A stretch of 48,617 nucleotides of DNA, taken from NCBI GenBank assembly GCA_016215205.1, contig JACRKU010000029.1:1-48617 (forward strand), given 5' to 3'. The stretch comes from Candidatus Yonathbacteria bacterium (GTDB lineage Bacteria > Patescibacteriota > Minisyncoccia > Phycocordibacterales > UBA1550). Below are positions 3,679-13,741 of the stretch, piece by piece. The notes under the pieces are model-generated. The model worked only from the letters and a program-made list of their open reading frames with translations, was not told where the DNA came from and made no database searches. Numbering within the stretch: position 1 is the stretch's first letter; each line of letters opens with the position of its first letter. A program made the translations under genes and the position numbers.

Positions 3679-4350
3679 CTATTCCTTTTTGAGAATTACA
3701 TTCGGATTAATCCGGTAGCCTGAATCCTGCCAGCCCACAATAAATTCGGATACTTTCAATTTCTTATGTACCATGCGCTTTATGGCCTGCACCGCACTTT
3801 GAACTGATTTGATACTTGAAAGATCAGTTAAATCAATTAGAGTTTTGGTCGGGATATACTTCCGGCTTGTCATCAAAGCCATAACAAGCTTCATTCGTCC
3901 GCTCGAGTTCTCCATACGGAAAGTATATTGGCTTTTAGGCTCACGATATAGTTCGCCGTCGGCTGATATGTAAACAGTGACCATTGGACCGGCCGGAGCT
4001 ACAGCTTTTTTCGTTAATGCCTCAGCTAAAGAAATGGCCGCTTGTCTGGCAAATGTTTTTATAAAATGTTCGTCATATTCAGTCAGTCCTTCAAACTTGC
4101 TTGTCCTGCGCTCTAAAAGTACACGAATACTTTTTACTTCATGTTTTGTTTCAACGATCTCCTTCGTCAGATCGATGATTGCTGATTCATTCTTTTCAAT
4201 AACCTTGTCAGCTTCAAGGATACCAGCCGATTCCAGCGATGACCGGAGTATATTTTTGGTATCCCCAATAGAAAAGGTATACCGGCTTTCTATTGCTACT
4301 TTTCTTCCTGTTGATGTGACAGGTTTAGTCTTTTTCATTTTCATACTCAT
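3679..4350 (-). CDS. Protein with C-terminal OmpR/PhoB-type winged-helix DNA-binding domain
   Basis: C-terminal KLVMALMTS.KYIPTKTL...SVQSAVQAIKR...FIVGWQDSGYRIN. Start is probably 4350, 4344 or 4338, downstream of the leftward promoter. Confidence 0.6.
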   Translation of the reverse strand: MSMKMKKTKPVTSTGRKVAIESRYTFSIGDTKNILRSSLESAGILEADKVIEKNESAIIDLTKEIVETKHEVKSIRVLLERRTSKFEGLTEYDEHFIKTFARQAAISLAEALTKKAVAPAGPMVTVYISADGELYREPKSQYTFRMENSSGRMKLVMALMTSRKYIPTKTLIDLTDLSSIKSVQSAVQAIKRMVHKKLKVSEFIVGWQDSGYRINPNVILKKE

Positions 4351-4366
4351 TTTTACTCTCAAAACC

Positions 4367-4417
4367 ATTATGACAAAAGACGGCGATTTTGACAATGAAC
4401 TTGGAAAGGGATAAAAT
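4367..4417. promoter_or_regulatory. Back-to-back sigma70 promoters with overlapping -35 boxes
   Basis: + strand: TTGACA(4389-94)-N17-TAAAAT(4412-17). - strand: TTGTCA(4395-90)-N17-CATAAT(4372-67). Confidence 0.7.
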
Positions 4418-4448
4418 GCTATCAAGACTAAAAAGTCAGTTTAATTTT

Positions 4449-4640
4449 ATGGCCGAAATCGAAAAACTTTTAACCATTGAGGAAATCGCCGAGATATTGC
4501 GAGTGCATACTCGCACCGTAACCCGATATATTGAATCGGGCCGGTTGAAGGCATCCAAGCTGGGAGTCTGGAGAATCAAACAGTCTGATCTGAATGCTTT
4601 TCTTGAGGAGACCAGTAACGTAAAGAAAAAGAAGAAATAA
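4449..4640 (+). CDS. Excisionase-family HTH_17/MerR-like DNA-binding protein
   Basis: LLTIEEIAEILRVHTRTVTRYIESGRLKASKLGVWRIKQSDL; ATG 4449 lies downstream of the promoter. Confidence 0.85.
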   Translation: MAEIEKLLTIEEIAEILRVHTRTVTRYIESGRLKASKLGVWRIKQSDLNAFLEETSNVKKKKK

Positions 4641-4643
4641 TAT

Positions 4644-6191
4644 ATGGCATCACTAAACTGGATTGGAAAAGAAGCTGTAGTAAACCACGATAAGGAGGTG
4701 CCTTTTAAGTTGCTGAAGAAGGTTAAGACAGCATCCGTTGGTGACAATTCTCAAAATCTTATAATCCACGGCGATAACTTGGAGGCCTTGAAGGCATTAA
4801 TGCCTCATTACTACGGCAAAATAAAGTGCATTTATATCGATCCACCTTATAACACTGGTAATGAGGGGTGGATATACAACGATAAAGTTAATTCTCCCAA
4901 AATCAAGCAGTGGCTCGGTAAGGTTGTTGGCCGAGAATCAGAAGATTTAACACGGCACGATAAATGGCTTTGTATGATCTATCCTAGGTTAAAACTGTTA
5001 AGAGATTTACTGACAGAGGATGGTTCTATCTTTGTTTCAATCGATGATAACGAGCACTGCAATCTACGGTTGGCCATGGACGATATCTTCGGGGAGATAA
5101 ATTTTGTAACGACCATAATTTGGCAGAAGAAATATACACAAAGTAACGATGCAAAGTATTTTTCAAATACGCACGACTTTATTATTTGTTATGCAAAAAA
5201 TAAAGAAAATAAGAATTTCAAAATAAACCTTCTGGCCAGAACAGAGGAACAAGATGCACGCTATAAAAATCCCGATAACGATCCTCGTGGAGTCTGGATG
5301 ACGCAACCTTTGCACGCAAAGAGTGGTACGGATAAAACATATGAGTTCACTTTCTCAAACGGTGTAAAGTGGAAACCACCCGCTGGCACGTTCCCTCGCT
5401 ATAGCATCAATACCCTAAAAGAAGCTGACGCTGGAGGCACAATTTGGTTTGGAAAAAATGGGAATGCTGTTCCTCGCCTTAAGAAATATCTTGCTGAAAT
5501 GAAGCAGGGCGTGATTCCTAAAACAATATGGTTATATGACGAAGTCGGAAGTAACGATGATGCCAAGCGAGCTATAAAACATCTTTTTGATGATAATCCT
5601 TTTGATTCTCCAAAACCTCCATCATTAATTAAGCAGATCATTAAACTTTCTAGTAATCCCGACGATACAGTTTTGGATTCGTTTGCTGGCTCTGGCACGA
5701 CTGGCCATGCGGTTTTGGAGTTGAATAAAGAGGATGGCGGTACTCGCAAATTTATCATGGTTGAGATGGAGGATGTGGTAGCAAAAAATATAACTGCTGA
5801 GAGAGTCAAAAGAGCAATTAAAAAATATGGTTACAAGGATGGTTTTGAATACTGCGAGCTCGACAAGCCACTTTTTAACGAACATGGCCAAATTGAAGAA
5901 ACTTGCGACTTTAGACAGTTTGCTACTTATATTTATTTTACTGAGACCCAAACGAATATAGACCCAAAGAAAATTGATGAGAATTTCATCGGCGAACTTG
6001 AGACAACCGAATATTATCTACTCTACAAAGGTAAGAATAAGAACGATCTTGATAAGTCATTTCTCAAAAAGATTAAGGATACCGATAGCAAGAAAGTGAT
6101 ATACGCAGACCGGTGTCTGATTGATGACGATACGCTCGCAAGACACAATATCGTCTTCAAGCAGATCCCTTATGAAGTAAAAGTCTACTAA
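4644..6191 (+). CDS. mod: Type III restriction-modification methyltransferase (N6-A, beta class)
   Basis: IIHGDNLEALK, motif IV IYIDPPYNTG, motif I VLDSFAGSGTT; directly upstream of res. Confidence 0.92.
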   Translation: MASLNWIGKEAVVNHDKEVPFKLLKKVKTASVGDNSQNLIIHGDNLEALKALMPHYYGKIKCIYIDPPYNTGNEGWIYNDKVNSPKIKQWLGKVVGRESEDLTRHDKWLCMIYPRLKLLRDLLTEDGSIFVSIDDNEHCNLRLAMDDIFGEINFVTTIIWQKKYTQSNDAKYFSNTHDFIICYAKNKENKNFKINLLARTEEQDARYKNPDNDPRGVWMTQPLHAKSGTDKTYEFTFSNGVKWKPPAGTFPRYSINTLKEADAGGTIWFGKNGNAVPRLKKYLAEMKQGVIPKTIWLYDEVGSNDDAKRAIKHLFDDNPFDSPKPPSLIKQIIKLSSNPDDTVLDSFAGSGTTGHAVLELNKEDGGTRKFIMVEMEDVVAKNITAERVKRAIKKYGYKDGFEYCELDKPLFNEHGQIEETCDFRQFATYIYFTETQTNIDPKKIDENFIGELETTEYYLLYKGKNKNDLDKSFLKKIKDTDSKKVIYADRCLIDDDTLARHNIVFKQIPYEVKVY

Positions 6192-6195
6192 TACT

Positions 6196-8463
6196 ATGGA
6201 ACTTAAAAAATACCAAAAAAATACATTAGAAACGCTCGAACAATTCTTGAAAGAACTGCGTAAGGCTGGCCTCAAGTATGCTTTTATGGGCATCACTGAA
6301 AAGCCCTATCATGCCGAGGCATTTGGTGAGGTTCCTTTTGTTTGTATTAAAATCCCAACCGGTGGTGGAAAGACCCTCGTAGGTTGCCATGCAATAGAGA
6401 AAATTATGACTGGCGCGCTCCATCATAAGTTGGACCGAGGGATAGTGCTTTGGTTTACGCCCTCTGAAGCAATCAAGACTCAAACACTCAAGAAGTTTAA
6501 AGACCGGAAAGACTGGCATCGTAGGGTTCTTGATGAAGCGTTTGATAACAGCGTAAAGGTATTTTCAAATGAAGAAGCATTGAGTATTCGCAAGGAAGAT
6601 GTAAACGATAATCTTTGCATCGTCATCTCCAGCCTTGAGGCGTTCCGCAAAGAAAAATCTCTCCAGAATAAGTACAAGGTGTATCAAGAAAACGGTACAC
6701 TCCTGACTCATTTTGAGAACATAGACGAGCCGGATTATCTTGAGCGTGACAGTGAAGGATCGGTAATTAATTCACTAGCAAACGTTGTCCGATTGAGTAA
6801 TCCGCTTATCGTGATCGATGAAGGTCATAAAACGACAACCAAACTATCAATTGATTTCCTGAAAGACTTAAATCCAAGCTTTATTGTTGAATATACCGCA
6901 ACACCACGCAGTGAGAGTAATATTCTGGTTGAGATTCATGCTTCAGAACTTAAGGATGAGCAGATGGTGAAAATTCCTATTGTGCTTGAGAGTTCGGCTC
7001 AATGGCAGAATTCAGTGACTAGAGGAATTGAGAAAAGGATTGAACTTGAGAAGGATGCTAAGAAAATTAAAGGAGAATATATTCGTCCGATTGCTCTATT
7101 GCAAGCACAGCCTAAGAGCAAAGACGGTCATACTGTTACCGTTGAACATATAAAAGATTTCTTGCTTGAACGAAAGATTTCAGCCGACGAAATTGCGATC
7201 AAGACTTCCGAGAAAAATGAACTTGAGGGAGTCGATCTCTTTAGTAAGAGTTGCAAAATTCGTTACATCATTACTGTCAATGCTTTGGCAGAAGGATGGG
7301 ACTGTTCCTTTGCTTATATTCTTGTCTCGGTTGCCAACCTTGGATCAAAGATTGCAGTTGAGCAGATTATCGGACGCATCATTCGTTTGCCTTATGCAAA
7401 AAGGAAAGCTAATGAAGACTTCAATAGGAGTTATGTCTTTGCTTCGGCAAGAGACTTTAACGAAGCGGCCGGTCAAATCATTTCCGGACTTGAAAGTAAC
7501 GGATACAGCAAGTCTGATCTTATCAGTGCCGACAAGAAAGATGCGACTTATGAGCTCGAAGCTAAAAAGGCCGTATCCGATGTGCTCAAGGTGCCGATGA
7601 TGGCCCTCGAAGGCGATCAGTTATCTTTTGAGGACTTGATTGGAAATGACTTTGAGCTTGCTAACCAAGATCATAAGTTCGAGTTCCAAATCCATTACGA
7701 TAATGATGGCAGAGCGATTATTGATATCCAGAAGGACAATGAGTGGATGCGTGGAGCCCAGATGTACTTGAAGTTGCGATACTCCGATAAAAACTATACA
7801 AAAAGTGAGCTGGTGCAGTGGCTGGATAAAAAACTGCGTTTTCCGTTACTCGAAAAATCAGACAAGGTGAGCTTTCTTGATAAAGCTATCGAGTATCAGC
7901 TTAAAACCCGTACTCTATCCGAACTATCCGTAAACCGTTACGTATTGGCTGATCGAATGAGCGAGTTTATTAATGGGGTTCTGGAAAAGTACGCAAAGGA
8001 AAAGTTTGATACGCTTTTACAAAAGAAGAAAATATCAACGAAGCCATTTGAGGCTTTCCCAAACACCATCTCTCTCAAACAGGCGGTGCCACAAGAATTC
8101 AATAGAAATTATTACGAGAAGATAGATAAGCTCAATGGTGAGGAGCTGAGTTTCGTCCAGCGTCTCGATCTGGACACTCTCCCCAACATTAAGTATTGGG
8201 TTCGTAGCCGAGAAAAGGTTGATCCGTTTTATATTCAGGGCTGGAAGCGAGGTAAGTTCTATCCCGATTTTATTGCGGTCACAAAGAAAGGTCAGATTAT
8301 AGCTCTAGAGTGGAAGGGTGCGGACCGGATCAGTAATGAAGATACAGCCTATAAGATAGAAATTGGAGAAGTATGGTCGAAGCTCGGTGGAGGAAAACTA
8401 CACTTTTTCTTAGTTCATACCGGGAATGTTGAAGAGACGCTAAGGGCGGTTAAGGAACTATAA
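6196..8463 (+). CDS. res: Type III restriction endonuclease subunit (SF2 helicase + PD-(D/E)xK nuclease)
   Basis: Walker A IPTGGGKT, VIDEGH, YTATP, LAEGWD, EQIIGRIIR, C-terminal FYPDF...LEWKG. Confidence 0.9.
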   Translation: MELKKYQKNTLETLEQFLKELRKAGLKYAFMGITEKPYHAEAFGEVPFVCIKIPTGGGKTLVGCHAIEKIMTGALHHKLDRGIVLWFTPSEAIKTQTLKKFKDRKDWHRRVLDEAFDNSVKVFSNEEALSIRKEDVNDNLCIVISSLEAFRKEKSLQNKYKVYQENGTLLTHFENIDEPDYLERDSEGSVINSLANVVRLSNPLIVIDEGHKTTTKLSIDFLKDLNPSFIVEYTATPRSESNILVEIHASELKDEQMVKIPIVLESSAQWQNSVTRGIEKRIELEKDAKKIKGEYIRPIALLQAQPKSKDGHTVTVEHIKDFLLERKISADEIAIKTSEKNELEGVDLFSKSCKIRYIITVNALAEGWDCSFAYILVSVANLGSKIAVEQIIGRIIRLPYAKRKANEDFNRSYVFASARDFNEAAGQIISGLESNGYSKSDLISADKKDATYELEAKKAVSDVLKVPMMALEGDQLSFEDLIGNDFELANQDHKFEFQIHYDNDGRAIIDIQKDNEWMRGAQMYLKLRYSDKNYTKSELVQWLDKKLRFPLLEKSDKVSFLDKAIEYQLKTRTLSELSVNRYVLADRMSEFINGVLEKYAKEKFDTLLQKKKISTKPFEAFPNTISLKQAVPQEFNRNYYEKIDKLNGEELSFVQRLDLDTLPNIKYWVRSREKVDPFYIQGWKRGKFYPDFIAVTKKGQIIALEWKGADRISNEDTAYKIEIGEVWSKLGGGKLHFFLVHTGNVEETLRAVKEL

Positions 8464-8477
8464 CTAGATGCCCAGAC

Positions 8478-11400
8478 ATGCTTAACAAACATGCTATTAG
8501 ATTCAAAGAATCCTTATCCGACTTCAGGATAATAACAGCAAACCTAGTGGTGCTGGTTAAAACCGCCTTTTTAGGTATTTTAAGTGCGGAAATTTGGGGC
8601 TTATCACTTGCCATCGCCTACAAGTTGAACGGATGGATTTCTTCCAATGACTATGAATATAAAGCAATAGCAGTTTGCGTTGCAGGTACTTTGTTTCTAG
8701 TCGCATACCTGCTGGCACGTGGAGTATTTGCTGACTCAAAGAAAATCATCCGAAGTTGCCGTATTGATGTGCTAATCATCTTCTGCTTCGGAATCTGGCT
8801 CAGTATTGCGTGGGGTGGTTTTCTATCGATATGGATTTCAAAGATCGTTTCCTCTGTTAACATTACTCAGATACTTACTATCCTTTCCGGACCTTTTATT
8901 TTGGGGACTCTAGTGATGGGACGGCAGTTGCTTTGGAAAGATAAGAAGACTGATTCTTCGCTAGTTACTGATATCGAGCTCAAGAGTAGAGATAACGATC
9001 TACTAAACTTTACGGGAAAAGCCAATGCATTTGCGGAGCGTGTATTCAACGGAGGATCACCAGAGAGCTTCGTGTTCGGGGTTGATGCTCCTTGGGGAAT
9101 AGGTAAATCAACTTTTATAAATTTCTGCAACGAGTACTGGGAGGAGAAGTACACAGACGGAGTGGTAGTTTATAAATTCAGTCCACTTCGATATTTGGGA
9201 TCGGCAAATTTGCTGGAGGTCTTTATTGATGGCTTGATACATGCCATTCAAAAGAATGCATTCATCCCTGAAATAAAACCCTTAATATCTCGCTACACTC
9301 GCTTACTCAAAGAGATAAAACGTTTTTCGCTATTCGGTTTTACTCTCCCGACCTTTGTAGTGGACTATACAGCCGACGAGGCATTCGACGACTTGAGTGC
9401 CGTTCTAAAACGATTTCCAAGGAAAGTCATTATAGTTATTGATGACTTGGATCGAATCAGTTTTGCAGAAATAAAAGACATACTGTTTGTTATAAGAAAA
9501 AGTTTTGCATTTCCGAATGTTTCGTACGTCATTTGTTATGACACAGAGAACATAGGCGTACTTGAAGCCGATTCTCCCGATGTTGAAAAGGTTGGTGAGT
9601 TTTTAGAAAAGTTTGTGAACATAAAAATCAGCTTGTACTTAGATAGAGAAGACTTGAAGAACTATGTGTCGGAGAATCTTGAGAGTGCACTCACTACGAG
9701 TATTGTCGATCCCTTGCCAGTGCGCCAGGCAATTGGAGGACTACTCGAGATATACGACTCGTCAATGTATCACAGGTATCTCCCTTTTATTGGTGATGTA
9801 AGAAAGTTGAAACGGCTCATCAATACCGTCATGATGTTTGACCTCCAGTCCACGGACTTTCAAAGTAGTGATTTTAATAAACGAGACTTGGTAAATCTTT
9901 TGCTCATCTATATCCATTACCCGAGCGTCTTTAGAAAGATTTATGATACTGAGACAAAGGGTGGTAGAGGATTTTTCTCATTGGTAATACCTTACGATGA
10001 AGGTTATCCGAAAGATGAAACAGGGACACGAGGAAGATCGTCATCTTCTGATTCTTCCTACAAGAATTCAACCCACTATCACGACTACTTAAAAGAGCTG
10101 GAATTTACTGAAGACACCCCTCAGCGTTTTCTTTTAGACCAAGTATTTAATGTGGACGTACGCTTGAAGACCGATAAAAACAGTCTCTATGGTAACGAAT
10201 ACGCTAACATAGATAAAATCCCAGACGATGTACGCACTTCGCTCGCCTGTTTTAACGGTGGTTGGACAAATGGCAGGAATCTTGAGACGTATTTGGATTT
10301 AATTGTGAACCTCTCAAAACCTGTCGATGTTGATCAACATAAATTTTATACTCAATGGAGAGATAAAATAATTAATAAAACAGTCACCATTGATACTGCG
10401 TTTGCAGATGAAAAGTTTACATATAGTGAGGGAGAGAACAGGAGAGAAAAGCTGTGGCGTATATTGGTGAACAACGCACGAGAATTGCCAAGTGATATTG
10501 CAAAAGAAATAATTACCTATCTTTTGAAGACAATACCCGAGTATTCCTTACTTGAAATGGGAGACCCAAATGTAGGAATGGGATTGCGACACAATTTGGA
10601 TTATTTCCTCACCAGACTACTGAACGATGCCGGATGGATTGATCCACAAGGTAAACATTCAAATAATGTTCAGCCCCACATCGCTGAAATTGCCGAATGG
10701 GTTTTTGGCGAAGGTAGACACGCAGGCAGTGGTGTACTCGCAACACTTTCAGAAGAAAATCGAGGTGTATTAGGAATCCACGACTTACTACTTTTTAGGT
10801 TATCTTGTAGCGCAGACCGTGGAGGCGACATCTTTGATTTATCTCGAGCCGTTGCAGAACACGCAAATCAGAACGCCCCCTCCGCAGGTTCTACAAGAGA
10901 TATCGCTCGTGAAGAGATGCGTGAGATATCCCAAAGGGTGTTCGAGATATTTAATACGAGATACATTCTTCCAAAGAAAAATATCTTTGCAGAAATTGAC
11001 GCTCTACAAACATCCAATCTCGTTGGTAAATATGACAACTTTCTTAAGCAGAAGATTACTGATGGCATATTCCAAGCTACGGACATAGACAAGAAATCCG
11101 TTGAGCTAAAAACTCGTGTGGGTGCTTTTATTCTGTACCAAATGGCGAACGCAGAAATCAATCTCGGAGCCGGATGCGGATTTTATGATCCTACCGGAAC
11201 TGAGGATAAGCACACCATCAGAGACTTAGTTAACGATTATCTTTTTGAACACTGCTTTGACCCAAAGAAAACTAAAAACACGGAATACTTCATTGACTAC
11301 TTGTTCAGAAACTTTGCTAGTGCATTTGCTTCTGCACGAGAAGATGGATTGAAATATATACCAAGTATTAATGAATTTATCAAAGTGTTGGATAAGGTGA

Positions 11401-11615
11401 AGCTTTCAACTTTTTGGCAGAAACATGGTACAACTTTCAAAAACCTTAAACTTGAGGATAAAGAAAAAGTCGTATTCGTGGGTAACGATGAAGCTTCGTA
11501 TAAAAAATATGTCCCCATGGTTTATAAAGTCTTAGACGATAACGTTACCGAAGTCACAAAAGTAGCCCCAACTTCTGTTGTGATTCCTGCTTCTAACCCT
11601 GTTATTGATGCCTAA
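8478..11615 (+). CDS. KAP-family P-loop NTPase with N-terminal transmembrane helices and a long uncharacterised C-terminus
   Basis: About 4 hydrophobic segments in the first 155 aa, Walker A GVDAPWGIGKST, Walker B VIDDLDR, FLEKFV and DVRKLKRLIN KAP motifs. Confidence 0.88.
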   Translation: MLNKHAIRFKESLSDFRIITANLVVLVKTAFLGILSAEIWGLSLAIAYKLNGWISSNDYEYKAIAVCVAGTLFLVAYLLARGVFADSKKIIRSCRIDVLIIFCFGIWLSIAWGGFLSIWISKIVSSVNITQILTILSGPFILGTLVMGRQLLWKDKKTDSSLVTDIELKSRDNDLLNFTGKANAFAERVFNGGSPESFVFGVDAPWGIGKSTFINFCNEYWEEKYTDGVVVYKFSPLRYLGSANLLEVFIDGLIHAIQKNAFIPEIKPLISRYTRLLKEIKRFSLFGFTLPTFVVDYTADEAFDDLSAVLKRFPRKVIIVIDDLDRISFAEIKDILFVIRKSFAFPNVSYVICYDTENIGVLEADSPDVEKVGEFLEKFVNIKISLYLDREDLKNYVSENLESALTTSIVDPLPVRQAIGGLLEIYDSSMYHRYLPFIGDVRKLKRLINTVMMFDLQSTDFQSSDFNKRDLVNLLLIYIHYPSVFRKIYDTETKGGRGFFSLVIPYDEGYPKDETGTRGRSSSSDSSYKNSTHYHDYLKELEFTEDTPQRFLLDQVFNVDVRLKTDKNSLYGNEYANIDKIPDDVRTSLACFNGGWTNGRNLETYLDLIVNLSKPVDVDQHKFYTQWRDKIINKTVTIDTAFADEKFTYSEGENRREKLWRILVNNARELPSDIAKEIITYLLKTIPEYSLLEMGDPNVGMGLRHNLDYFLTRLLNDAGWIDPQGKHSNNVQPHIAEIAEWVFGEGRHAGSGVLATLSEENRGVLGIHDLLLFRLSCSADRGGDIFDLSRAVAEHANQNAPSAGSTRDIAREEMREISQRVFEIFNTRYILPKKNIFAEIDALQTSNLVGKYDNFLKQKITDGIFQATDIDKKSVELKTRVGAFILYQMANAEINLGAGCGFYDPTGTEDKHTIRDLVNDYLFEHCFDPKKTKNTEYFIDYLFRNFASAFASAREDGLKYIPSINEFIKVLDKVKLSTFWQKHGTTFKNLKLEDKEKVVFVGNDEASYKKYVPMVYKVLDDNVTEVTKVAPTSVVIPASNPVIDA

Positions 11616-11616
11616 A

Positions 11617-11799
11617 ATGAAACGCCAGTTCAAAAAATTACCAGAAAGTATAGACCTGCAAAAAGCCGAAGAGATATTTTCGGACCGGTTAGCCGAGCTT
11701 ATTGTTATGACGCTGGATTATCAGTATGAGCAGAAGCTTAAAGCCAAGGCCGATCCAAAAGAAGATGTGTCGGGTGAGGAAAAAGTTAAGCAATTATGA
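11617..11799 (+). CDS. Small hypothetical protein
   Basis: ORF abutting the KAP stop; helical, charged (EEIFSDRLAELIVMTLD). Confidence 0.45.
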   Translation: MKRQFKKLPESIDLQKAEEIFSDRLAELIVMTLDYQYEQKLKAKADPKEDVSGEEKVKQL

Positions 11800-11808
11800 C
11801 TCAGTGTA

Positions 11809-11839
11809 ATTTGCTTAACATCGCTTGAGTTAAGCAAAT
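11809..11839. terminator. 11-bp inverted repeat (terminator or protein-binding site) ending the rightward operon
   Basis: ATTTGCTTAAC-N9-GTTAAGCAAAT. Confidence 0.5.
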
Positions 11840-12013
11840 CGTCCCACGCTCTCAAATTTGGTCTTACGGCTTGGACCGGGTGCAATAGGTGTCAAACATT
11901 TACTCTTGGCACAAAGCTCGCTACAAGGGCAACCAGTCGGGCAGAAAGCGGGTTAGTTAGAGTTGGTTCGGATGAGTACGTTCACAAGGGTCTCAAAATT
12001 CGCTACAATGGCA

Positions 12014-12108
12014 TTATATGGTAGCAAGCTGGGCTTCGTAAGCAGATTTTAGTTGGTGCCAGTCGTATAACTCTCGCATTATTTGGTTCCAGTTAATTTG
12101 TAAGTAGT
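12014..12108 (-). other. Detached 3' end of the integrase gene (31 codons + TAA) at the right boundary
   Basis: After GTG(12112-10) reads DYLQINWNQIMRELYDWHQLKSAYEAQLATI*; in frame with integrase KSSLV when the CCAC cores are joined. Confidence 0.7.
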
Positions 12109-12112
12109 CCAC
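12109..12112. repeat. Candidate right attachment core (CCAC)
   Basis: Partner of 167-170. Confidence 0.65.
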
Positions 12113-12158
12113 AACGGCAGGCGGTAATGCGAAAGCATTACCGCCTTTTGCCGTTGTG
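12110..12158. other. 21-bp GC-rich hairpin with GAAA tetraloop (terminator-like or small RNA)
   Basis: CACAACGGCA-GGCGGTAATGC-GAAA-GCATTACCGCC-TTT-TGCCGTTGTG. Confidence 0.75.
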
Positions 12159-12307
12159 AGACCCGAGGAGATTCGAAAGGCGCAGGCGTGTACACACAAT
12201 AGTCTGCTGTGTTTGCGAGACCATTTCTACAAAACTTGCATAATTTGAGGAAAACACTAATATGTAACTTAGGTATTGTACGTTTCAAAACAACCAAGGA
12301 GAACGCG

Positions 12308-13741
12308 ATGTCAGCCAAAAAAGAGGCGATGTTTGGGAAAATTGTTGCTTACAATGAACGCGACAAAAAATTGTTTGTACTCGACACCAACGTGCTTATG
12401 CACGATCCTGTCAGCATGTTCAGTTTTGACGAACATGACATTTATCTGCCGATGGTAACATTGGAAGAACTCGACCACAACAAGAAAGGCATGACCGAAG
12501 TTGCGCGCAACGCTCGTCAAGCAAGTCGTTTTCTGGACGACATTGTCAGCGGATATGAAGGAAAGATTGACGAAGGTTTTCCTTTGGCATCGCAAAATTC
12601 TCGCGCAACCGGCCGTCTGTTTTTGCAGACCAGCTTGATCGACAGCAATCTCCCCAGCTCTCTGCCAATCGGCAAAGCCGATAATCAGATTCTCGGAGTT
12701 GTGCTCCATCTGGCGAAAGAAAAAAAGAATAGGCAACAAGTTGTCTTGGTTACTAAAGACATCAACATGCGTATCAAGGCACGCGCACTTGGTCTTACAG
12801 CAGAAGATTACCGGAGCGACAAGGTGCTCGAGGATACAGACTTGCTTTACTCGGGTATGCGCGAACTGTCTCCGGACTTTTGGGAAAAACACGGCAAAGG
12901 CATGGAATCATGGACGAATGCCGGTAATACGTATTATCGCATCAAAGGACCTATGGTGGAGAGTCTCCTTGTTAATGAGTTTCTCTATCAGGAGAATGAT
13001 AAGCCGCTTTATCTTATCGTCAGGGATGTTAATGGCGCGAGCGCGGTGCTCTCAACAGTCAAAGATTACGCCCATGCTAAGAATAATGTTTGGGGTATCA
13101 ACACGCGCAATCGCGAGCAAAATTTCGCTCTCAATGCGCTCTTGAATCCGGATATTGATTTTGTCACATTGTTGGGTCAGGCCGGCACGGGTAAAACCTT
13201 GCTGACTCTGGCTGCAGGGTTACATCAAACACTGGAGACTAAAATTTATTCGGAAATCATTATGACCCGCGTCACGGTGCCGGTCGGGGAAGACATCGGT
13301 TTTTTGCCGGGTACCGAGGAAGAAAAAATGACACCGTGGATGGGCGCGCTAGAAGACAATCTGGATGTGCTTAATCATAATAGCGATGAGCGCGGCGATT
13401 GGGGGCGTGCCGCTACGCAAGACTTGATTCGTTCACGCTTAAAGATTAAATCGCTTAACTTTATGCGCGGACGGACATTTCTTGAAAAGTACCTCATTAT
13501 CGACGAGGCGCAGAACCTCACGCCAAAACAGATGAAAACTCTGATAACGCGTGCTGGTCCCGGTACGAAGGTGGTCTGTTTGGGTAACATTTCCCAGATT
13601 GACACGCCATACCTTACCGAAGGCAGTTCCGGGCTCACGTATGTCGTGGATCGTTTTAAGGGTTGGAAGCATAACGGCCATGTAACGCTCATGCGCGGCG
13701 AGCGTTCACGGCTGGCGGATTATGCCGCAGAAGCATTGTAA
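12308..13741 (+). CDS. PIN-domain PhoH-family ATPase
   Basis: PIN motif FVLDTNVLMHDP, VTKDINMRIKA, Walker A GQAGTGKT, RGRTF, IIDEAQN. AAGGAG SD at 12296-12301 supports ATG 12308. Confidence 0.92.
   Translation: MSAKKEAMFGKIVAYNERDKKLFVLDTNVLMHDPVSMFSFDEHDIYLPMVTLEELDHNKKGMTEVARNARQASRFLDDIVSGYEGKIDEGFPLASQNSRATGRLFLQTSLIDSNLPSSLPIGKADNQILGVVLHLAKEKKNRQQVVLVTKDINMRIKARALGLTAEDYRSDKVLEDTDLLYSGMRELSPDFWEKHGKGMESWTNAGNTYYRIKGPMVESLLVNEFLYQENDKPLYLIVRDVNGASAVLSTVKDYAHAKNNVWGINTRNREQNFALNALLNPDIDFVTLLGQAGTGKTLLTLAAGLHQTLETKIYSEIIMTRVTVPVGEDIGFLPGTEEEKMTPWMGALEDNLDVLNHNSDERGDWGRAATQDLIRSRLKIKSLNFMRGRTFLEKYLIIDEAQNLTPKQMKTLITRAGPGTKVVCLGNISQIDTPYLTEGSSGLTYVVDRFKGWKHNGHVTLMRGERSRLADYAAEAL

Follow-up and report, generated by a model that had tools for sequence, protein, structure and literature searches.

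EF_KAP blocks phages as a single gene, and its product combines two transmembrane (TM) helices and a KAP domain with a 322-aa region to which no domain is assigned (PMC13552941). Three metagenomic KAP fusions with other uncharacterised tails likewise protect against phages, and protection of the EF_KAP type requires both the Walker B motif and the tail (PMC13552941). EF_KAP does not act by abortive infection, because protection is equal at a multiplicity of infection (MOI) of 1 and of 10 (PMC13552941). A similar protein, SthRAP-12, was reported from S. thermophilus (2026 preprint). Membrane KAP NTPases have thus only just been shown to be anti-phage (2026). The stretch of DNA analysed here (the window) is a 48,617-nt contig of a Candidatus Yonathbacteria bacterium, JACRKU010000029.1. 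It contains a membrane KAP NTPase gene (P0001, 8478–11615, + strand, from an ATG start to the stop codon inclusive) that encodes a protein of 1045 aa. Our analysis indicates that this protein is probably a stand-alone, single-protein membrane NTPase for defence against phages or other mobile elements. The gene most likely travels on an integrative island as part of its cargo, where it shares one cassette with a type III restriction-modification (R-M) system. The membrane domain, the KAP domain and the tail of the protein are always inherited together.

The window protein has the architecture of the EF_KAP type, a single open reading frame (ORF) in which TM helices and a KAP domain are joined to a large C-terminal region without a known domain or structural match. 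Both are linked to serine recombinases and mobile islands, although the recombinases are large in the window family and small in EF_KAP. Compared by description, EF_KAP measures about 620 aa; of its two TM helices, one is N-terminal and the other lies within the KAP domain, and its tail has 322 aa. The window protein has 1045 aa, a tail of 590 aa and four TM helices, all of which precede a KAP domain that is not interrupted. By analogy, the family is most likely a variant of the single-protein defence class of the EF_KAP type, differing in topology, size and tail. An earlier reading of the window, made from the letters without database searches (the sequence-only reading), had proposed a stand-alone, possibly new abortive-infection system. 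The stand-alone part held, as clustering of all ORFs of 81 loci found no conserved partner gene. "Possibly new" was too strong, because single-gene membrane KAP NTPases with an uncharacterised C-terminal region have already been described as a defence class. Abortive infection is an assumption only, and EF_KAP, the one analogue put to the test, was reported to act otherwise.

Tmn is a YobI-family TM NTPase with an armadillo (ARM)-like solenoid arm, which recognises T2 RIIB and exports Mg2+, causing plasmolysis, and its variability is concentrated in the C-terminal arm (PMC13001434). By analogy, Tmn appears to be the closest mechanistic analogue of the window protein and offers the best mechanistic model. 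In each case a single membrane P-loop NTPase carries an ARM-like helical solenoid as its C-terminal arm, and no operon partner is conserved. Tmn differs in that it belongs to the YobI family, not KAP, and in that two TM helices interrupt its P-loop domain. The C-terminal region is variable in Tmn but conserved in the window family. PADLOC-DB holds a Tmn model, which gave no match; the only families matched at E ≤ 0.1 were PifA, QatA and PDC-S20. Membership of Tmn or YobI was rejected on this absence of a PADLOC Tmn match and because there are no TM helices inside the NTPase domain. RdrA and the STAND/Avs-type proteins share a three-part layout with a helical C-terminal domain, but they are soluble and have enzymatic effectors or partners such as RdrB. 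A Foldseek search with the whole model of the window protein placed RdrA of RADAR first (E 3.5e-5), followed by ORC/Cdc6, NOD2 and Apaf-1, with TM-scores of 0.22–0.27. Because these TM-scores are low, the comparison with RdrA and the others is limited to the oligomerising NTPase core.

The sequence-only reading had compared the protein with the phage-exclusion protein PifA. The KAP domain is common to the two, but their C-terminal regions are unrelated. BLASTP aligned residues 152–485 with PifA 7–357 at 22% identity (E 4e-13), and the PADLOC PifA model matched at 4.7e-27 through the KAP domain only; both genes are carried on mobile elements. PifA, the T7-exclusion protein of the F plasmid, has no N-terminal membrane domain, since its KAP domain begins at about residue 7–28. 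Nothing in the tail aligned with F-plasmid PifA in BLASTP, and hhalign gave a probability of 0.13% for the C-terminal profile against the PifA C-terminus. No PifC-like gene lies beside the KAP gene, the upstream genes being HTH_17, mod and res. Orthology to PifA was rejected, as the direct comparison with F-plasmid PifA shows the KAP domain alone to be shared. QatA also has a KAP-type P-loop (PADLOC QatA 1.5e-8), but it is part of a four-gene system, and QatB, QatC and QatD neighbours are absent here, where R-M and island genes are found instead. The NCBIfam QatA score was 23.4 bits over residues 174–282 against a cut-off of 600. QatABCD membership was rejected for this score, far under the cut-off, and for the lack of QatB/C/D neighbours. 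The PADLOC search that the sequence-only reading had called for thus returned the type III R-M system and KAP-level matches to PifA and QatA, but nothing beyond the KAP domain in the KAP protein. Judged by such comparisons, the window protein is a KAP NTPase outside every named system.

The four N-terminal TM helices and the KAP NTPase named in the sequence-only reading were both confirmed, by hydropathy and by Pfam, respectively. The N-terminal membrane domain (aa 1–150; 8478–8927, +) has four TM-like segments in the hydropathy profile, at about residues 18–48, 62–82, 98–122 and 129–148, and consists of long helices in the AlphaFold2 (AF2) model. The full-length AF2 model has a mean predicted local distance difference test score (pLDDT) of 79.9 and shows long helices at 2–152, an alpha/beta core at 179–455 and an all-alpha part at 468–1032. 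Basic residues precede TM1, lie in the TM2–TM3 interval and follow TM4. Because of this pattern and the positive-inside rule, the NTPase and the tail are placed in the cytoplasm in our reading. Charged residues of the membrane domain are conserved. Glu38 in TM1 is kept in 72/74 full-length relatives, and in the motif S93-x-R95-x-D97 of the TM2–TM3 loop, S93 is kept in 72/74, R95 in 74/74 and D97 in 73/74.

[quoted passage not shown] Intact motifs were defined as GxxxxGK[ST] for Walker A and hhhhDDxDR for Walker B. Walker A is GVDAPWGIGKST (aa 201–212, nt 9078–9113, +) and Walker B is VIIVIDDLDR (aa 317–326, nt 9426–9455, +). Both are invariant in 74/74 full-length relatives (K210, D322, D323, D325 and R326), from which NTPase activity of the protein can be presumed. 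The founding description of the KAP family reportedly names TM helices inserted within the P-loop domain in its title. No TM-like segment follows Walker A in the window protein or in 62/74 relatives, and all four TM helices precede the KAP domain. The feature is not strictly defining for the KAP family, since PifA, a founding member, lacks it. Later authors placed the TM helices of KAP proteins outside the NTPase domain (PMC13001434).

The C-terminal region (aa 456–1045; 9843–11612, +) is 590 aa long, somewhat more than the approximately 550 aa first estimated, and is all-alpha and solenoid-like in the AF2 model. Residues 455–1045 were also modelled on their own, with a cross-phylum alignment as input, giving a pLDDT of 87 and a predicted TM-score (pTM) of 0.82. 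The structural check suggested by the sequence-only reading thus produced a confident all-alpha model but no relative, as Foldseek against the PDB and BFVD returned nothing at E ≤ 0.001. The best matches were weak and were to ARM/HEAT, importin or PUF solenoids (E 0.03, TM-score ≤ 0.2). The isolated region had no match in Pfam, PADLOC or NCBIfam, and none in the PDB by sequence or by profile. Its description as a helical tail without a recognised motif was therefore sound.

When 1.84 billion representative proteins were searched with a profile made from the C-terminal region, 341 clusters (50% identity) were found. Among the best 150 of these, the domain lies at about 450–1000 of proteins of about 1000 aa, nearly always in the same architecture; shorter profile matches look like fragments. 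Because the search returned this one layout, the C-terminal domain is, as far as the profile matches indicate, specific to the fixed 4TM-KAP-tail architecture. Domain shuffling of the region was rejected, since only this architecture occurs among the best 150 profile matches. The invariant residues of the C-terminal region are R486, E492, N530, N593, N601, R704, D769, R774, R815, S818, Q819, N835 and Y903. In addition, C591, C777, C900 and C926 (nt 10248–10250, 10806–10808, 11175–11177 and 11253–11255) are kept in 72–74 of 74 family members across phyla. These four cysteines are distant in sequence and could form a metal or cofactor site. The family is suited to study, with about 340 clusters, a fixed architecture, a confident tail model without a known fold and conserved residues to mutate.

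Tmn, STAND/Avs and RdrA serve as analogues for a proposed mechanism. In the cytoplasm, the solenoid-like C-terminal domain would bind an infection-specific component. Binding would switch the KAP NTPase, which would drive or rearrange a membrane oligomer. The 4-TM domain would then be turned into the output, with the buried Glu38 and the S-x-R-x-D cytoplasmic loop taking part. The output might be a leak or export of ions or solutes that stops phage replication. The R-M system would act as a first and independent layer, co-expressed but mechanistically dispensable. This order of sensor, switch and output is favoured because of the STAND-like domain order, the solenoid-like tail, the precedent of Tmn and the conserved charged residues of the membrane domain.

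Several points weigh against a defence NTPase that works in this way. A literature search found no published experimental test of the 4TM-KAP-tail family, and PADLOC and NCBIfam recognise its KAP domain alone. The C-terminal region has a mean identity of 0.54 within the Candidate Phyla Radiation (CPR) and 0.35 between CPR and Pseudomonadota, and it lacks the hypervariability of the region proposed as the sensor in Tmn. Block 701–835 of the tail scores 0.62 within CPR and 0.44 between the clades, where it exceeds the KAP domain (0.37). The TM domain evolves fastest (0.33 within CPR, 0.17 between CPR and Pseudomonadota), which is unusual for a conserved effector. The invariant polar residues and the four cysteines of the tail could belong to a conserved site for catalysis or for binding a ligand or cofactor just as well as to a sensor. 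The immediate neighbours of the gene in Pseudomonadota are mostly housekeeping genes, so the defence-island signal is weak there.

These conservation data make the reverse assignment a serious rival, because the tail is conserved, the TM domain is the fastest-evolving part, and the tail has many invariant polar residues and four near-invariant Cys residues. In this arrangement, which the EF_KAP authors gave for EF_KAP (PMC13552941), the membrane domain would be an anchor or a sensor of membrane events such as DNA injection, and the C-terminal domain would be the effector, with a new enzymatic or target-binding activity switched by KAP. The conservation of block 701–835 beyond that of the NTPase across clades, the restriction of the C-terminal domain to one architecture and the loss of defence on deletion of the EF_KAP C-terminus (PMC13552941) also speak for it. 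However, no enzyme fold or motif was found in the tail, which has just the weak ARM/HEAT-like matches mentioned above, and all-alpha solenoids are mostly binding scaffolds. The conserved charged residues E38 and S-x-R-x-D also imply that the membrane domain is more than an anchor. We consider the reverse assignment unlikely, although it is the likeliest of the alternatives. Slightly less likely again is that the family forms a class of its own among membrane immune receptors. A new-fold tail, with a site for a cofactor or ligand built from the cysteines and polar residues, would then read a conserved signal of infection, such as nucleotides or DNA-end products of the kind made by neighbouring restriction systems, and would gate a 4-TM conduit through KAP. 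Glu38 of TM1 and the S-x-R-x-D loop would then be the gate of this conduit for ions or solutes.

The KAP gene follows three co-directional genes. The first is a small HTH_17 DNA-binding gene (4389–4640, +; Pfam HTH_17 E 6e-17, residues 27–75); the ORF as listed begins at TTG, and the real start may lie further downstream. It is followed by the type III R-M methyltransferase gene mod (4644–6191, +; 515 aa; Pfam N6_N4_Mtase 6.8e-45, PADLOC MTase_III 1.1e-187) and the restriction subunit gene res (6196–8463, +; 755 aa; Pfam ResIII 1.1e-13, PADLOC REase_III 1.8e-88), which bear out the earlier assignment of the neighbour as type III R-M. The res stop codon TAA is at 8461–8463 and the KAP ATG is at 8478. 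The spacer of 14 nt (8464–8477, +), like the 1045-aa ORF that follows it, was read from the sequence exactly as had been noted. The sole near-consensus sigma-70-like promoter in 4200–12400 lies at 4389–4417 (11/12 matches), ahead of HTH_17-mod-res-KAP, and no convincing terminator was found between these genes. For these two reasons, a single HTH-mod-res-KAP transcript is plausible, but it is only inferred. Downstream, a 60-aa ORF (also labelled orf64; 11617–11799, +) has an ATG overlapping the KAP stop (TAAAATG) and no Pfam match. It is conserved only at L018, a locus in Patescibacteria bacterium UBA6033 (98.4% identity), and is no family-wide partner of KAP. No tRNA or Rfam elements were found in the window.

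Comparison with L018 shows how the KAP gene moves in this lineage. A 6.3-kb block (window 5666–11932, L018 5189–11455) containing the 3' part of mod, res, KAP and the 60-aa ORF has 95% DNA identity, and the 14-nt gap between res and KAP is present in L018 too. The Res proteins are 97.6% identical and the KAP proteins 98.5%, whereas the proteins of the island backbone (recombinase, HTH/TerS-like and a 248-aa protein) are merely 32–38% identical. Since a near-identical block sits in islands with diverged backbones, res-KAP-orf is, on this comparison, one cassette that travels as a unit in this lineage, and the pattern points to recent exchange of defence cassettes between diverged island backbones.

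It might be asked whether the KAP protein depends on the adjacent restriction system, either sensing restriction products or failure of the R-M system, or tethering the R-M enzymes at the site of entry through the membrane. The 14-nt spacing and the single upstream promoter, the 95% identical res-KAP-orf64 block in diverged islands, and the occurrence of HTH_17 and R-M genes of varied type beside KAP in several CPR loci would all agree with such a dependence. However, the type and orientation of the R-M system differ between loci. The type III system is co-directional in the window and divergent at L013; L001 has a divergent type IIG system with a divergent HTH_17 gene, and L011 has a type II system. 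L002 has ParB-MTase and HNH neighbours, and at L003 there are methyltransferases, while mod/ResIII lies at the opposite end of that island. R-M genes are missing from the vicinity of KAP at many loci, including L004, L005 and most of those in Pseudomonadota and Paenibacillus. A type III res-like neighbour was found in 7/81 loci in varied orientation, and type III mod-res linkage was not consistent across the family. The R-M association is facultative across the family, and backing up the R-M barrier, as proposed in the sequence-only reading, is not a family property. Defence genes also generally cluster without functional coupling, and we regard functional dependence on the R-M system as improbable.

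A stand-alone defence protein fits with what is recurrent around the gene. Large serine recombinases are the commonest neighbour family of KAP homologues; within 8 kb of KAP in the CPR clade, they occur at 17 loci, N6_N4 methyltransferases at 11 and type III res-like genes at 7. A Pfam tally of two genes on each side at 42 loci gave Resolvase/Recombinase 6 times, N6_N4_Mtase 5 times and Mrr_cat 3 times, with N6_Mtase, Eco57I, Methylase_S and ResIII 2 times each. Mrr and components of type I and type IIG R-M systems are among the recurrent neighbours. In the window, the island on which the KAP gene sits spans about 12 kb and includes a large serine recombinase gene (3–1712, −; Pfam Resolvase 9e-28 and Zn_ribbon_recom) that runs to the contig end. 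The island ends before 12210, because similarity to G015, in the comparison with same-genus genomes, starts near there.

The family is widespread but patchy. A word-indexed search found more than 170 full-length relatives with 42–87% identity, nearly all in metagenome-assembled genomes of Patescibacteria and annotated merely as "P-loop NTPase fold protein". A scan of one genome per species found a relative encoded in 238 genomes of Patescibacteria, Paenibacillaceae and Pseudomonadota. Identity to the window protein is 45–98% in CPR lineages, about 41% in Paenibacillus and Cohnella, and 31–34% over residues about 23–1027 in Pseudomonadota (Pseudomonas, Cupriavidus, Acidovorax, Variovorax, Comamonas, Marinobacter, Methylomonas, Zoogloea and Vreelandella). 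The tree separates a clade of CPR and Paenibacillaceae from a clade of Pseudomonadota. CPR phyla are mixed on short branches, where, for example, about 0.17 substitutions per site separate one sequence of Paceibacterota from one of Saccharibacteria, and beta- and gammaproteobacterial families are likewise mixed. Among 61 related genomes, the gene is present in 1 (0/28 of the same genus, 0/32 of the same order). The gene is accessory and horizontally mobile, and because the tree mixes phyla, transfer between phyla has taken place. Because Paenibacillus, Pseudomonas, Cupriavidus, Acidovorax and Marinobacter are cultivable and harbour close relatives, the function can be tested without culturing CPR bacteria. 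The host genome is CPR-typical, with 611 kb at 95% completeness, and a 3.1-kb gene is a large investment for it. This cost points to strong pressure from phages or mobile elements and to active exchange of defence cassettes among islands.

Full-length homologues are also carried by four Burkholderia plasmids, where integrase genes and a gene of the AIPR family lie next to them. One of them (L092, Burkholderia glumae plasmid NZ_CP100261.1, 17572–20550) is a full-length member with 30% identity, annotated as "KAP family NTPase". On the four B. glumae plasmids, the member lies between genes for site-specific integrases and an imuABC cassette, and genes of the AIPR family and with an FRG domain are close by. 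No full-length homologue was found among 50,697 phage records. Carriage as cargo of serine-recombinase islands and plasmids would also suit a protein that serves the mobile element itself, by excluding rival islands or plasmids, by interfering with helper phages or by stabilising the island after segregation. Such a service overlaps with defence and is hard to tell apart from it by sequence, but many homologues stand alone amid housekeeping genes and lack any mobility gene in the surrounding 8 kb, and we think it very improbable. The protein might instead have a housekeeping role outside conflict, as a membrane scaffold or NTPase. Eukaryotic KAP NTPases such as the signalling scaffold Kidins220/ARMS and the housekeeping neighbours in Pseudomonadota could be cited for this role, which the sequence-only reading had set as the test against itself, but it is close to refuted by a gene that is absent from all 60 related genomes searched, patchy across phyla, horizontally transferred in the tree, and carried on islands and plasmids.

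Some smaller features of the locus were also seen. Just beyond the island lies a PIN + PhoH fusion gene (12209–13741, +), which is itself patchy; it is present in 3/29 same-genus genomes, and one further genome has a partial match of about 75 residues. Genes of the HTH_17 type stand beside the R-M and KAP pair in several CPR islands (L001 9759–9935, −; L011 7741–7926, −; L013 7745–7990, −). The HTH_17 gene is co-directional with KAP in the window and divergent from KAP elsewhere, and it may be an R-M controller or a shared regulator. The mod genes of the window and L018 have 83% DNA identity in the 5' part and 95% in the 3' part, and the proteins are 65% identical overall. A central segment of about 560 bp could not be aligned (window 5107–5666, L018 4612–5189). 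The target-recognition domain thus seems to have been swapped, and the specificity of methylation and restriction would then differ. Directly after the cassette is a non-coding segment of about 123 bp (window 11809–11931, L018 11332–11455). A second copy in L018 (18375–18497, 76% identical) lies 7 kb further on, and the segment may be an island-end repeat or one related to the attachment (att) site.

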